Shown in pieces: positions 24,809 to 33,800 of a stretch of DNA of 64,000 nucleotides. This DNA comes from Escherichia coli (GTDB lineage: Bacteria; Pseudomonadota; Gammaproteobacteria; Enterobacterales; Enterobacteriaceae), in NCBI RefSeq assembly GCF_001677475.2, contig NZ_CP015229.1. One strand, written 5' to 3'. Within the stretch, counting starts at the first letter, position 1. The number at the start of each line of letters is the position of its first letter. Made by a program: the position numbers.

Positions 24809-27800
24809 TAGGCCGATATGATGCGCCAGCATCGCATCCGGCACTGGCTCCCAGGCCACGCCAGATGCGCCATGCTGGTTACTGGAAGCAGGTAACCAGA
24901 CCCGGTTTATTCATTAGCGTGATACTACAATCCTGTGCTCCAGTGCCTTCGTCCATCCCACACTGTTGAGAGGACAAATAAGGAAAACTTGGTGAAGACG
25001 GCCATCCCAGTGAATTAAAAACAGTATGCAACAACTCTAATTCATTGTATGTCGGTGCATTTTCTATGCTGCCACACTGCCTTGCGATATCCCATTTACT
25101 GGCATCAATGATATGTGCAGAAGCCCAGTTTTCGTAGTTAATAAACGGTGAGGATACGGGATTAGCCCCGGACGGCAATTCCGTCGTTAACAACGGTCGA
25201 TGTAGCGATTTACCATTCACCACTACCGTGTCTGCCATATGTCCCCAAAAGTGCGCCGAGGAAACATTCGGGCTGGTTGGCACCGTAAAAATAGCGTCCA
25301 GCGTGTCTGTCGCGGAAGCGTAATTAGCCAGAGTAACCGTCAGTGGCGTTTTATAACCAGGGGTATTATCCTGGCGGAGCGTAAAACTTGCCGTCCCATC
25401 AGCGCCTGTCATGCCACTAATGGTATTACCGCTTTCACTCAGCGTAATAGCCGAACCAGATAACGGCTGAACGATGAGATCGTCCATCGCCACCACATCA
25501 CCATACAACGTTGCCCCAGCGTTACGCGGCGATGCCTCACCACGTTTCAAAGTAAACTCCACATTCGGCACCGTATTCCCGGCGCTGTCTTTCACCGTCA
25601 CGGTAACGGGCATGGCTTCGCCTTTTTTCACTTTCGCCGCCTGGCTGTCAGCATCAAACGCTGTTGAGGTCAGTGTGACGCTGGAAACCGTCGCGCGCGC
25701 AGACACCAGGCACGCCTGATAAGCGGTATTAACATTCAATGTCGTCAAGCCATTTTTCATATCGAGCGACTGATTTTTGCCATCTGTAGTCTTATCCTGC
25801 GCCCACCAGCCATAATAAACTGACCAGCCAGTTTCCGTCGTAAAGGTGTTATTGGGATAACGTTGATACAGTGACTTCATATCGCTGAGCAACGGTTGTC
25901 GTGCTTCTTCACAGGGGCTGAGGCTGGCATTTGCTTTGGTTGTTGCTGAGAAATAGGGCCAGTCCTCATTATTGTTACTGATTTTATTCACCCCGGAGGT
26001 CGATGGCAGCTCTTTCCACAATTTCGGTCGTTCAAAGACGGTTCCATTTGCCGCTGTCACCGTTTCTGGCATATGGCCCCAGTAGTTGGCATCCGGAGTG
26101 TCAGGGCTGGTGACCACGGTAAATATCAGGTCCAGGTTTGACGTGATCTGCGGATCTTGTGCAAGCGAGACCGTAAACGGCGTTGCCAGGCCAGTGGTGT
26201 TGTTTTGCGTAACATTGAACGTCACAGTGCCATCACTGCCGGTAAAGCCAAGCCATTTTGCCGTATCCTGAGCAAAGGAAATGCTGGCTGCTGTCGGTGT
26301 GACGACATTTACAATAAGATCATCTGCCGAAGTAGATGAGGGCTTATTCCCTGTACGGTTTTTCGACTGCGCCCGCTGAAGCGTCACGCTCTCACCACTC
26401 ACCAGGTTGCCATTTTGGTCTTTTACTGTCACGACTAACGGGATTGTCTCGCCCTTTTTCGCCGATGCCGAAGGTGTGCCACCGTTGCTGGCGGTTTTCG
26501 TCTCATCAAATGCGGCTGACGTGAGAGTCACGCTTGATGATAAAGCGTGAGGCTGCGTCAGACAAAGCATCAGAGCAGACGGATAGAGAGAAGATGAAGG
26601 TTGTCCTGTTTTCAGGTTAATGACCTGATAATACCAGGACGTGCCACTAAGAGTAAGCTCATAAGTCCACCAGTTTCCGGCTGTTGTCGGCACCCCCAGA
26701 TCTGTCGTTATCGCCCCGTTAGGGTGATCGTTATAAAGCCCCTGCAACTCGCTGAGGCGCGGTTGATATTCCAGTGGGCAATCTGCCGTCGCTTTTTGAG
26801 TGTTGGATATATATGACCATGTCTCATTATTACCATTTACCGAGCTCCCCGAAGTTGCTTCCGCTGCCAGTAATGGGCGCTTGAAGGTCACGCCTGCCGA
26901 GCTGGTAAACGTTTCCGGCATATGGCCCCAGTATTTCGCTTTTGGCGAATCCGGGCTGGTTATCACCGTGAAAATGACATCCAGCGTGGCGCTTTTTGAG
27001 GTGTCGCGCATCAATGTTGCAGTGAGCGGGGTTGCGAACCCATAACTGCCGTTTTGGCTGACCTCAAACGTAGCTTTACCATCGCTTCCTGTCTTCAGAA
27101 GAGCCTGCGTCCCATCCTCATACAAGATTGACGTTACCCCGGTAGGCTCCAAAGGCACGATGGTAAGATCATCTGCAGAGGCATTGTACGCAGCTTTAGC
27201 GCGATTCAGCGCAGTCCCACGTTTAAGGTTAAAGCTGGCACCTGGCAGTGGATTGCCTGCGCTATCTCGCACCGTAACCGTCATCGGGATAACCTCTCCC
27301 TTCTTCGCCGTTGCACTGGGCCTGCCATCATTGCTCGCCGTTTTCGTTGCATCCTCTGCCGTTGAGGTCATCTCAATAGAAGCCGCCTCTGGATGAGGGT
27401 TTACCAGGCACAGCATTAATGCCGAGGTGGTTGAAGACGCTCTTCCACTTGATCCATTTAACAGAGAAATATATTGATCGTACCACTTACCCGCATATGC
27501 CACCACGTCGTAAGCCCACCAGTAGCTATTCACTGGAATACCCAGATCGGTCTTTATCGCACGACTTGGATGTTCGTCGTACAATGCCTGGAGTTCGCTT
27601 AACAGCGGTTGATAATGTACATCGCACCCGCTTTTATCTGCATCCCCCTTTGTTGCCGATTTCAACAATCCCCATGTTTCATTGTCTTCTATGACTCCAG
27701 ATTCTGACGATGTTTCGCTCTTGAGTAGTGGACGCCTGAAGGCAATCCCGGAACGCGTAGTGAACGTTTCCGCCATATGCCCCCAGTAACTTGCCAGGGG

Positions 27801-30800: not shown

Positions 30801-33800
30801 TTGCTTAAAGCCGGAATAGGTGTCGATGTTGCCCGTGGCCAGGTTCACCGACGCATGCGACGTCTCTTCCACCGCACTAAGATACGCTTTTTGCAACGTT
30901 GGCCAGCCATATTCGGTGCCGATGACATTGGCTGGATGTGCGGCAAACAAACTGTGCAATGAGCTTTGGCTCGGAATATGACCTAAACCACACTCAGCCT
31001 GCATACTGCTATTCTGATCAAACAGCGCCCAGTCTTCGTTATTTTCCCGCACTGCTCCCAGTTCGTTGTCGGTTTCATCCGCCAACCGTGGGCGTTTAAA
31101 GATATTGTTCGCTTCAATAATGCCTAACATATGTCCCCACATCCGCGCTTTGTCGGAATCAGGGCTGGTGATCACCGTAAAAATAACGTCTTTCTCATCC
31201 GAAGCGGTAAAATCACTGCGCATTTTCGCGGTGATGTGAGTTTTCACCCCCACTCCGCCTGGCTGGGTCAGCGTCAGAGAGGCCTCTCCGTTAGCATCAG
31301 TGATCCCTTCATAGATATGGGCGTCAACTTTGCGAACGTTACTGCCGCCATCAATTTGTACCGGGTGCGTCTCCCACGCGGCGTCAGTTTGATTCTTACG
31401 GTTAACGCCGTCATCCAGATGCAGCGAAAAGTAGTAGTAAGCCAGCGGCTGATCGTTGTTCTTGCTATCGGTAATCGTCAGGCGTAAAGAAGCCTCTTCC
31501 CCCACCTTTACTTTCATCGCTTTTATCGTCGAATCATAACTGCCCGGCGTCAGTACCAGCTTCGGTTCAACATCGGGCGCTTCTTTATCGACACAGCTCA
31601 CAATAAACGTCGTATCGTCCGGTTTTTGCGCTTCGCTGCGGTTCGAAACATCCGCCGCATGGTGCTGGCCGCTCATCCCCGCCAGTGATGACCAGTAGTA
31701 GTTCCCCTGCATCGGCCAACCAGCCACATCCTGCACTGACGTTGGCACCACCGTCGCCAGCGCACCGAACTGACGCATTCCGGGCAAAATGTCGCAATGT
31801 TTATCCGCGCCGCTCCAGGTAAAGGTGGACCAGGTTTCATTGTGATCGTTAACCGTACCGTCTTCATTATCGACTTCCGCCGCCAGTTTTGGTCGACTAA
31901 AAGTGTAATCACGGGCCTTCAGCGTATCGGGCATATGACCCCACATTGTAGCCTGCGGGACATCCGGGCTGGTGAGGACGGTAAAGATCACTGCCGTTTC
32001 ACTGGCCTGAGCAATACCCGCGAGGCTCGCGACCAACGGCGTTTTTACACCAGGGCCGTTGGCCTGGGTGACCGTAACCGTGGCAACACCATTCGCATCG
32101 GTAGTACCACGATATTCCGTCGCGGTGGTGGTTAATTCGGTCGTGCCCAGTTTTACAGGCGCAGTATTGTTCACCACACCCTGGCGGTTTTCAGCATCTT
32201 TGCGTTTGATAACAAAAGGAATATTCCCCACAACATTACCGACGCAATCTTTGGTAGTGACCGTTAACGTGATACTGCCGCCAACCGTCGTTTTCGCCGC
32301 ACCGGAGGATTCGTCATAGCCCGCGGCGCTGACGGAAATAAGGTCACCCTGCGCGGGCGCAATCTTCAGCGTCACTTTCTGATCGGCGAGCGTCAGAACA
32401 CTTTCATAGGGATAGCCCGTCGAGGTGAGTAAATATAACAGCGGCATGGTCTGCTGGGGATCAGGCTGCGCCCAGGCGACCAGCGAACGCCCGGCAAGTC
32501 CCTGTGCGCAAAACGAGCGATCTGCGACTGGCTGTGGGTCCAGTAAGGTGTCCGGCGTCGCGGCATCCGCCCAAACTAAAGATACTGTCGGTGGCGTTTG
32601 GTTTTCCCAACGTGGGATGGAAATGATATCGCCTTCTCTGTCTTGCGGATTGGTGACGAGCAATTTAGAGACGCTAACATCCGCGCTGAATTCACTCGGT
32701 TTAGCGGTAAACGCTACCTCATGCGTCTTTGCAGGATCCAGAAAGACACTGCCCTGGTAGACGGGTATGCTGGCACTGTCGGCGGTGGGCACGGTACCGT
32801 TAAATTCACCGACCGTATCTGAAGAGTCTTGCCATGCAGATTCTGCCCATGACCACCCAGGCAGCATTGCGCTTATCAGCAATGCGCATAACACAAGGAT
32901 TTTATTCAGGGTCAGGGACATGACAGAAACTCCACCGGTTGTTAAACGGACGCTTGTCGCATCAACATATTTTGCTTAATCCGGGATTAAGCAAAATATG
33001 CGGAAACAGCATTCCCTTGCGGGAATGCTGCTGAGTACGCGTTATTTGTGTTTGTAAATAATGTGAAGTTTGTACCCCTGTACCCCGTCGCCGTTGGTCG
33101 GGATGGTAAGAGCTTCTTTACCATCGCGCGCAGGGCCGTTAAGGTTGGTTCTGGCGTCTTCATTGGTCGCAGGGATGACCAGATTGTTATTATCGAAGCT
33201 TGAGTTAACGATACCACCCGAGGTGCCGAGCTGTTGGCTACTCCCAGAAAGTACCCAACGGAAGTCATAATTGGCGGTAACGTCAGCATCGGTACCTGCA
33301 TCAAACTTGCCGTTTTTGTTCTCATCCGAGTACAGTTTGGCCACGTAGGTTTTGCCAAGTTCGATTGGCGTGCTGCCGTTGATAAGGTTGATACTGGTAC
33401 CATCAACAAAGATGGCGACTTTCAGGTTCTGGTTAACTACCGGCCCTGGCGCAACGTTGTCGCTGTCGCTTCCGCCGCCGCTGGCAGTGGAAATGTCATA
33501 AAGATGCAGCGCATTCCCGACGTTTGGCGTACCGGTCTGCGTGGTTGGCGTAATTTCAATACCGATATAACGACCACGGTCATCATCGGTAAGGGTGTAA
33601 CTGGTCACCTTCGTTACCAGCTCTTTTGGATCGTTACCCTGAGCGTCCTTGTAGCTCATCCAGCGGATAGTATCGATAGTTTTCGCGTTATCGCCCAATC
33701 CCCCAAGATCCACGTCGCCTTCGTTATCACCAATTACCCAACTTACGGTTAATTTATCACCCGAGTAAAGACGCTTGTCCGTTTCACTGCCTGTCGGGCG

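Follow-up and report, generated by a model that had tools for sequence, protein, structure and literature searches.

The gene ratA in a 64,000-nucleotide (nt) stretch of Escherichia coli DNA (contig NZ_CP015229.1, assembly GCF_001677475.2; the whole stretch is called the window below) is an already catalogued Escherichia gene for a RatA-like adhesin and not a new kind of element. Its product is, with high probability, a giant adhesin lacking a beta-barrel of its own and built from a leader, an N-terminal beta domain and nine modules, each pairing an immunoglobulin-like (Ig) domain with an InvE-type adhesion domain; the array would be an old one that loses modules by deletion at conserved motifs, and the protein would be exported and bind its ligand in the steps proposed below. 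Each module carries a TSPD...WGHM motif, which a sequence-only reading of the window had described as an invariant core. We read this core as the junction between the Ig and adhesion domains of an InvE-type adhesin tip, and we attribute the length polymorphism of Escherichia RatA (7-11 modules) to recurrent in-register deletions that mostly cross over within it; these two points are what the analysis adds.

The ratA-like coding sequence, identified from the list of open reading frames (ORFs), the translation and NCBIfam, occupies window positions 24879..32921 on the minus strand. It is the sole long ORF noted there and encodes 2680 amino acids (aa) from an ATG start. The protein scores 5400.2 bits against the NCBIfam equivalog NF011844 ('RatA-like protein', cut-off 3870) in an alignment that runs end to end (protein 1-2680 on profile 1-2683 of 2683), in agreement with the 'RatA-like' label that it had received from sequence alone. 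The closest public proteins share 96% aa identity with it, and the closest complete E. coli allele, that of N3, is 97.0% identical at the nt level, the maximum among 5426 complete genomes. The architecture is already known, because the NF011844 cut-off is passed and a sinH-sinI-ratA island between der and xseA is on record; the kind of element is not new either, because Pfam (BIg21 + InvE_AD), the NCBI 'RatA-like' model and the 'DUF823/DUF824 repeat adhesin' models already capture the repeat architecture.

WGHM occurs nine times in the protein (aa 327, 595, 863, 1145, 1429, 1713, 1998, 2281 and 2559), with spacings of 268, 268, 282, 284, 284, 285, 283 and 278 aa, equal to 804-855 nt, and TSP[DN] is likewise present nine times, each 10 aa upstream of WGHM. 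The protein's composition gives a chance expectation of 0.0009 copies of WGHM, and one or more copies appeared in 13 of 20000 shuffles. The nine cores of the sequence-only reading are thus confirmed, and the residue numbers it gave for the first two are right, these cores lying at 311-333 and 579-601. Its flanking motifs hold with exceptions in modules 1, 3, 5 and 9: R-P-[KRL]-L follows the core in 8/9 modules (RSRL in module 3) and N-E-x-W in 7/9 (GEEW in module 5, NYENW in module 9), and K-[KV]-G-[ED] opens the Ig part of modules 2-9 (TVGG in module 1). An in-register alignment of the nine modules runs through their full length at 27-46% aa identity. Self-comparison of the gene at the DNA level gave 30 diagonals (E <= 1e-3), all at offsets no more than ~0.1 away from a whole multiple of 846 nt, the ~840-nt periodicity that had been predicted.

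Pfam divides the array into nine consecutive pairs of BIg21 (PF05688, 'Bacterial Immunoglobulin-like 21') and InvE_AD (PF05689, 'Adhesion domain'), with E values of 1e-16 to 1e-39, and RatA thereby shows the alternation of PF05688 and PF05689 that marks the DUF823/DUF824 repeat adhesins. The tandem modules of ~280 aa proposed earlier therefore stand, whereas the view of each as a single domain does not, there being two domains per module with the core at their junction. The Ig-like character of the first half was also recovered, in nine BIg21 matches; Big_1, the Ig family that had been suggested, gave marginal matches only (E 0.0014 to 5), and BIg21 is the right Pfam family.

All parts of the gene listed here lie on the minus strand. 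A putative Sec-type signal peptide (aa 1-26; 32844..32921) was read from the sequence by its basic n-region, hydrophobic core and SWA cleavage-type motif; the same reading finds no lipobox (L at -1 of C12), and a comparable hydrophobic leader stands at the start of all homologues. It is followed by an all-beta Rat-family N-terminal domain (aa 27-213; 32283..32843). Module 1 (31590..32282) comprises BIg21 at aa 214-316 (Pfam E 3.2e-26) and InvE_AD at aa 319-444 (E 2.4e-28), with its core at 31923-31991 and a cysteine pair at 376/443. The corresponding parts of module 2 (30783..31490) are BIg21 at aa 478-584 (E 6.8e-24), InvE_AD at aa 587-713 (E 6.6e-29), core 31119-31187 and cysteines 644/712, and those of module 3 (29961..30704) are BIg21 at aa 740-851 (E 4e-24), InvE_AD at aa 855-987 (E 3.1e-32), core 30315-30383 and cysteines 916/986. 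Module 4 (29100..29867) pairs BIg21 at aa 1019-1134 with InvE_AD at aa 1137-1274 (core 29469-29537), module 5 (28248..29003) BIg21 at aa 1307-1418 (E 3.3e-21) with InvE_AD at aa 1421-1558 (E 4.9e-32; core 28617-28685), and module 6 (27405..28139) BIg21 at aa 1595-1702 (E 5.2e-18) with InvE_AD at aa 1705-1839 (E 1e-31; core 27765-27833). Further along the protein, module 7 (26589..27299) has BIg21 at aa 1875-1987 (E 1.8e-23), InvE_AD at aa 1990-2111 (E 7.8e-34), its core at 26910-26978 and cysteines 2048 and 2120; module 8 (25710..26453) has BIg21 at aa 2157-2270 (E 8.2e-24), InvE_AD at aa 2273-2404 (E 8.5e-32) and its core at 26061-26129. The terminal module 9 (24960..25622; core 25227-25295) consists of BIg21 at aa 2434-2547 (E 4.8e-23) and InvE_AD at aa 2551-2654 (E 3e-16), the latter match spanning model positions 1-106 of 136; it has TSPN in place of TSPD and four cysteines, at 2616, 2654, 2665 and 2678. 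Every adhesion domain contains a cysteine pair 67-73 residues apart.

The core straddles the BIg21/InvE_AD boundary; in module 1, for example, the last BIg21 residue (aa 316) and the first InvE_AD residue (aa 319) both fall within the core. An AlphaFold (AF2) model of module 4, with a 25-sequence alignment of paralogous modules as input, reached a predicted local distance difference test (pLDDT) score of 88.5 and a predicted template modelling (pTM) score of 0.83. In this model the long last Ig strand finishes in FTVVTSPD, which also supplies the linker, and the second domain opens with WGHM as its first strand. At the sequence level PDB 5n40_A matches module 1 (aa 208-422) at E 1.7e-29, and the RatA module has the Ig + adhesion domain fold of PDB 5N40. 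Weaker structural matches, to invasin, intimin, the Legionella Lcl C-terminal domain and FGE/TvpA-type folds, form a pattern that fits a putative C-type-lectin-like adhesion domain. The inverse-autotransporter adhesin InvE has one distal tip, made of a unit of this Ig + adhesion kind; each RatA module is the same unit, its Ig domain rigidly fused to the adhesion domain, and RatA has it nine times over. Judged from the position of the core, the most economical explanation of its conservation is that it holds the Ig and adhesion domains together.

The modules are strongly diverged. Long stretches of different modules agree in 57-64% of their nt, a figure that climbs to no more than 79% across ~80 nt at the core, and in the DNA self-comparison all exact repeats within the gene stay below 20 nt, the longest being 18-19 nt. 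The most similar module pair within one protein shares at most 56% identity, both in the window protein and in all of its 120 best homologue clusters. Judged by this divergence the array is ancient and its modules old, as the sequence-only reading had held. The core forms the peak of inter-module nt identity (best 30-nt window 74% mean pairwise identity, against 43% overall), with in-register exact runs of 7-18 nt between modules; its synonymous positions vary at the DNA level. In a comparison of 25 modules, drawn from three alleles with only 50-66% identity to one another, neither the cores nor the cysteine pairs vary.

Module numbers were determined with hidden Markov models (HMMs) built from the window's own Ig and adhesion domains and applied to the 120 homologue clusters. 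These counts replaced a motif-only count (WG.M), which under-counted some alleles, and per-domain HMM mapping replaced full-length blastp, which gave ambiguous, shifted alignments between alleles of unequal module number. Seven modules were found in 15 clusters, eight in 41, nine in 55 (the window included) and 11 in one. The complete genome of O145:H28 12E115 has seven modules, and the ST131 allele has nine at only 66% protein identity to the window. When mapped domain by domain onto the window modules, the alleles show many different loss patterns. Recent duplication or expansion was not seen in the 120 clusters, for which the maximum module identity within a protein is the 56% given above. 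The 11-module relative, P0039 (3264 aa), has two extra modules, with identities of no more than 44-56% to the other modules; therefore they would not be a recent duplication, but either ancient modules lost elsewhere or an old expansion.

Two deletion junctions were resolved at the DNA level. Locus L007 (protein P0004, assembly GCA_051950895.1) is 97.7% identical to the window gene over nt 1-4305 and 97.8% over nt 5086-8043, and its crossover falls inside a 15-nt identity, CTGGGGGCATATGGC, which encodes WGHM; the 5' parent is the module 5 core and the 3' parent the module 6 core (m5|m6). Locus L008 (P0049, assembly GCA_012291005.1, m6|m8) switches from the module 6 core to the module 8 core at ACCAGCCC, the codons for T-S-P. 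At the protein level, switches at WGHM were found in P0054 (m4|m6), P0037 (m6|m7), P0050 (m4|m5), P0074 (m3|m5), P0103 (m2|m4) and P0048 (m5|m6), and switches at TSPD in P0052 (m5|m7) and in P0044, P0034 and P0028 (all m5|m6). Hence the crossover lies within the TSPD/WGHM core in 12 of the 12 resolved in-frame deletion alleles, which represent at least nine distinct events (eight module pairs, with two crossover points for m5|m6). Two whole-module losses cross elsewhere, P0013 at ALMLCL and P0045 at KKGE/D. All characterised deletions are in frame and in register and rebuild a complete Ig-adhesion module. The core is the preferred crossover point of recurrent module deletions. Judged from these alignments the contraction is real, the variation among close alleles coming from recurrent in-frame, in-register deletions that mostly cross at the core, and it probably runs through short microhomology at motifs kept similar by protein constraint. 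Of the recombinational expansion and contraction foreseen from the tandem units, contraction is thus borne out, in alleles of 7, 8, 9 and 11 modules and deletion crossovers in the core, whereas no recent expansion was seen. Against P0013, the window gene is 97-100% identical in modules 1-4 but falls to 87-92% in modules 5-8, and RatA alleles appear to be recombinant mosaics.

Against the N3 allele, ratA has a ratio of non-synonymous to synonymous substitution rates (dN/dS) of 0.27, compared with 0.06 for xseA, 0.14 for sinH and 0.19 for sinI; guaB has no non-synonymous change. The substitutions fall mostly in modules 5, 6 and 8 (dN 0.03-0.05, dS 0.08-0.16), and dN is below 0.01 in modules 2, 3, 4 and 9. 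The gene is constrained, though less so than xseA. Together with the uninterrupted 8-kb frame (6.4-8.1 kb in every examined allele) and the strictly in-frame deletions, the dN/dS points to a functional but fast-evolving, surface-type protein.

The proposed working of RatA begins with export by Sec, to which the signal peptide points. One disulfide per adhesion domain would form in the periplasm, as the conserved cysteine pair of each module suggests. By homology with InvE, up to nine lectin-like tips could bind a ligand multivalently. ZirT/ZirS/ZirU suggest by analogy that the co-encoded SinH, together with SinI as its partner, may help the protein to reach, or stay at, the cell surface. This step draws on synteny and on a published hypothesis, in which Rat-like proteins found next to SinH-type inverse autotransporters are proposed as substrates of the barrel by the same analogy (Heinz et al., PMC4943183).

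Several observations count against this picture. Pfam matches to IAT_beta (PF11924), LysM, two-partner secretion (TPS) or RTX domains occur nowhere in the 2680 aa, so that RatA has no recognisable secretion or anchoring domain, and the search for fold relatives of its N-terminal domain found none. The structural role of the core is deduced from its position. In O145:H28 12E115 (locus L005, 8965-11146) a frameshifted sinH stands beside an intact 7-module ratA, and in AST85 (locus L009, 10018-13369) a deletion has fused a truncated sinH with the end of ratA, both being annotated as pseudogenes. L007 holds the one deletion junction resolved at the DNA level within the window's own allele class, and it comes from a draft assembly; its junction is absent from the complete genomes of that class, of which 378/378 hold both halves apart in nine modules. 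Finally, of the Salmonella mutants in ratA, ratB, shdA and sinH, all but the ratA mutant reportedly showed a colonisation phenotype (Kingsley et al. 2003).

That differences in module number are short-read assembly artefacts, produced by repeat collapse, is extremely improbable. The sequence-only reading had warned of such collapse, and the draft origin of L007 and L008 and the missing L007 junction would agree with it, but every 20-mer of the gene occurs only once, so that k-mer assemblers would have nothing to collapse and such an artefact is unlikely. Moreover, 7- and 8-module alleles lie on contigs of 4.87-5.5 Mb (P0013, P0044, P0048 and O145:H28 12E115), and the crossover points differ between alleles. 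We also give little credence to ratA as a relic drifting towards loss, whose module deletions would be steps of decay and not functional length variants. The ORF is uninterrupted in every examined allele, the ratA query is covered to 80% or more in 936 complete genomes, each characterised deletion rebuilds a complete module in frame and in register, cores and cysteine pairs are invariant in the 25 modules compared, and dN/dS is well below 1; these weigh more with us than the facts that all number changes among close alleles are losses without any recent duplication seen, that decayed loci exist (O145:H28 sinH and AST85), that the neighbouring housekeeping genes have a dN/dS several times lower than the 0.27 of ratA, and that the island is absent from about two thirds of complete E. 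coli genomes. A further proposal, that the core is kept partly as an in-frame recombination joint under selection for varying tip number and for re-pairing Ig and adhesion domains (evolvability or antigenic variation), seems to us quite unlikely. All 12 core-type junctions do lie in the core and yield chimeric Ig(k)-AD(k+d) modules (AD, adhesion domain), the m5|m6 loss arose with at least two crossover points, at TSPD and at WGHM, and the alleles are mosaic in the manner of P0013. The motif is, however, conserved at the amino-acid level while its synonymous positions vary, and TSPD and WGNM stand at the corresponding position of the InvE tip, which is single-copy and has no array to recombine; passive microhomology would also put crossovers at the only stretch of nt identity, and ALMLCL and KKGE serve as junctions too.

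As to export, RatA might leave the cell by a route other than SinH/SinI, for example a type II secretion system (T2SS), or be released soluble and not anchored, which we regard as conceivable though rather unlikely. A Sec signal without a barrel would suit this, and InvL of Acinetobacter, a barrel-less invasin-like adhesin, is a T2SS substrate (PMC9245377); the intact 7-module ratA beside a frameshifted sinH in O145:H28 indicates that RatA may not strictly need SinH. SinH and SinI are nevertheless preferred as the helpers of RatA. At every inspected locus ratA adjoins sinH-sinI, the two occur in near-equal numbers of complete E. coli genomes (1739/5426 and 1749/5426, always chromosomal), SinI resembles ZirU, a secreted partner of an inverse autotransporter, and the ratA neighbourhood contains no T2SS genes. 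We consider it improbable that two bolder propositions hold together, namely that TSPD...WGHM is a built-in recombination joint which tunes tip number (7 to 11) and re-pairs domains without misfolding, and that a type Ve 'two-partner' system of SinH/SinI secretes RatA as its large cargo. If they did, no giant substrate of an inverse-autotransporter barrel would have been known before RatA.

The gene order in the window is guaA, guaB, xseA, ratA, sinI, sinH, der, which places ratA at the island position of RatA-like genes; the order der - zinc-ribbon gene - sinH - sinI - ratA - xseA - guaBA is common to E. coli N3, ST131, CT30 and O145:H28. Upstream of ratA lies sinI (33042..34019, minus strand, 325 aa), which encodes a SinI family autotransporter-associated protein (NF040711, E 9.9e-100) with weaker matches to the SinH C-terminus (E 2.8e-11) and the ZirU family (E 3.1e-7). 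It is preceded by sinH (34074..36269, minus strand, 731 aa), for an intimin-like inverse autotransporter (NCBIfam NF033423, 1484 bits, cut-off 999). The literature treats the E. coli island as the counterpart of the Salmonella CS54 island (PMC3739510), and ratA is listed among the virulence-associated genes of LF82 (PMC2941450). The guaA-guaB-xseA flank (window 20161-24811) is at most 97.7% identical to any of the 5426 complete E. coli genomes, 1267 of which fall in the 90-95% band; therefore the window appears to come from a somewhat divergent Escherichia lineage, and the 97.0% maximum of ratA is in line with its flanks. By comparison, sinH-sinI (window 33042-36269) is 99.0% identical to the soil isolate VCSW7, which suggests that the island may be mosaic relative to its more divergent flanks. 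Scans of sinH-sinI-ratA for promoter and terminator consensus sequences returned about as many matches as chance would give, and neither support nor refute an operon. Elsewhere in the window, ryfA (55693-55978, plus strand), sroE (41450-41541, minus strand) and the iscRS stability element (63234-63343, minus strand) exceed their Rfam gathering scores.

The sinI-ratA spacer of 120 nt folds at -49 kcal/mol (z = -6.66). RNA folding places in it, on the minus strand, two tandem perfect hairpins at 33007-33030 and 32966-33000, CAGCATTCCC-GCAA-GGGAATGCTG and CATATTTTGCTTAAT-CCCGG-ATTAAGCAAAATATG, the second stem being kept via compensatory changes in the ST131 and O145 alleles. The hairpins matched no Rfam family and have no clear T-tract; they might serve in attenuation, in processing or stabilisation, or as a palindrome bound by protein. 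In O145:H28 the same spacer (L005 7650-7943) measures 294 nt, against about 110-120 nt in other alleles, and its extra sequence resembles palindromes of the repetitive extragenic palindrome/bacterial interspersed mosaic element (REP/BIME) type, for example GCCTGATG...CATCAGGC and GCCGCATCCGGCA.

Variation in module number bears on typing, on the pan-genome clustering of ratA and on the sinH-sinI-ratA locus as a vaccine target. The locus also lends itself to testing the proposed SinH/SinI (ZirT-like) secretion route, and with it how a barrel-less adhesin of 2680 aa crosses the outer membrane. Some records (protein P0011, for example) name the adhesin 'ribosome association toxin A-like protein', a collision of names. 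A study of ST131 evolution read recurrent mutations in a 'ratA-like toxin' (bioRxiv 10.1101/2023.12.11.571174), which may be the CS54-type RatA adhesin, sharing only its name with the ribosome-association toxin RatA.

Among known systems, the giant repeat adhesins of type I secretion systems (T1SS; SiiE/BapA/RTX type) differ from RatA, which has an N-terminal Sec leader, lacks RTX/T1SS Pfam domains and is neighboured by sinI, sinH, xseA and der. Inverse autotransporters (type Ve: intimin, invasin, InvE and SinH) carry a 12-stranded IAT beta-barrel (PF11924) that RatA does not have, the barrel residing in the separate SinH. In this respect the sin locus resembles Salmonella ZirT/ZirS/ZirU, where an IAT barrel protein is likewise followed by barrel-less proteins of the Ig superfamily; the SinI-ZirU similarity is weak (E 3.1e-7), however, RatA is about ten times the size of ZirS or ZirU, and its relation to these cargo proteins is an analogy and not a demonstrated homology. 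The distal Ig + C-type-lectin-like superdomain of intimin and invasin (PDB 1F00/1F02 and 1CWV) is distant from the RatA module, with 10-14% identity, poor global superposition and marginal Big_1 matches.

RatA and RatB of the Salmonella enterica CS54 island (NF011843 and NF011842, 'DUF823/DUF824 repeat adhesin') are alike to the window protein in the N-terminal domain (E ~1e-57), in the two-domain modules and in an island shared with sinH and sinI. The window protein scores 1956.5 bits against NF011843 (cut-off 3700) and 2265.1 bits against NF011842 (cut-off 4079); hence it is not their equivalog but a paralogue or a relative of their orthologue group, and their profile lengths of 1860 and 2435 imply module numbers unlike its own. 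The genes shdA and ratB are missing in E. coli, as in S. bongori (PMC3739510). The E. coli and E. albertii 'RatA-like protein' (NF011844, PRK15316), annotated as 'adhesion domain-containing protein' or 'DUF823 domain-containing adhesin', is of the same kind and at the same locus. InvE of Yersinia pseudotuberculosis (InvasinE), an inverse autotransporter, carries a beta-barrel of its own at the N-terminus and the Ig + adhesion unit at its tip (the C-terminal Ig + adhesion domain of PDB 5N40). It has this unit once, whereas RatA has nine in tandem, no barrel and another N-terminal domain.

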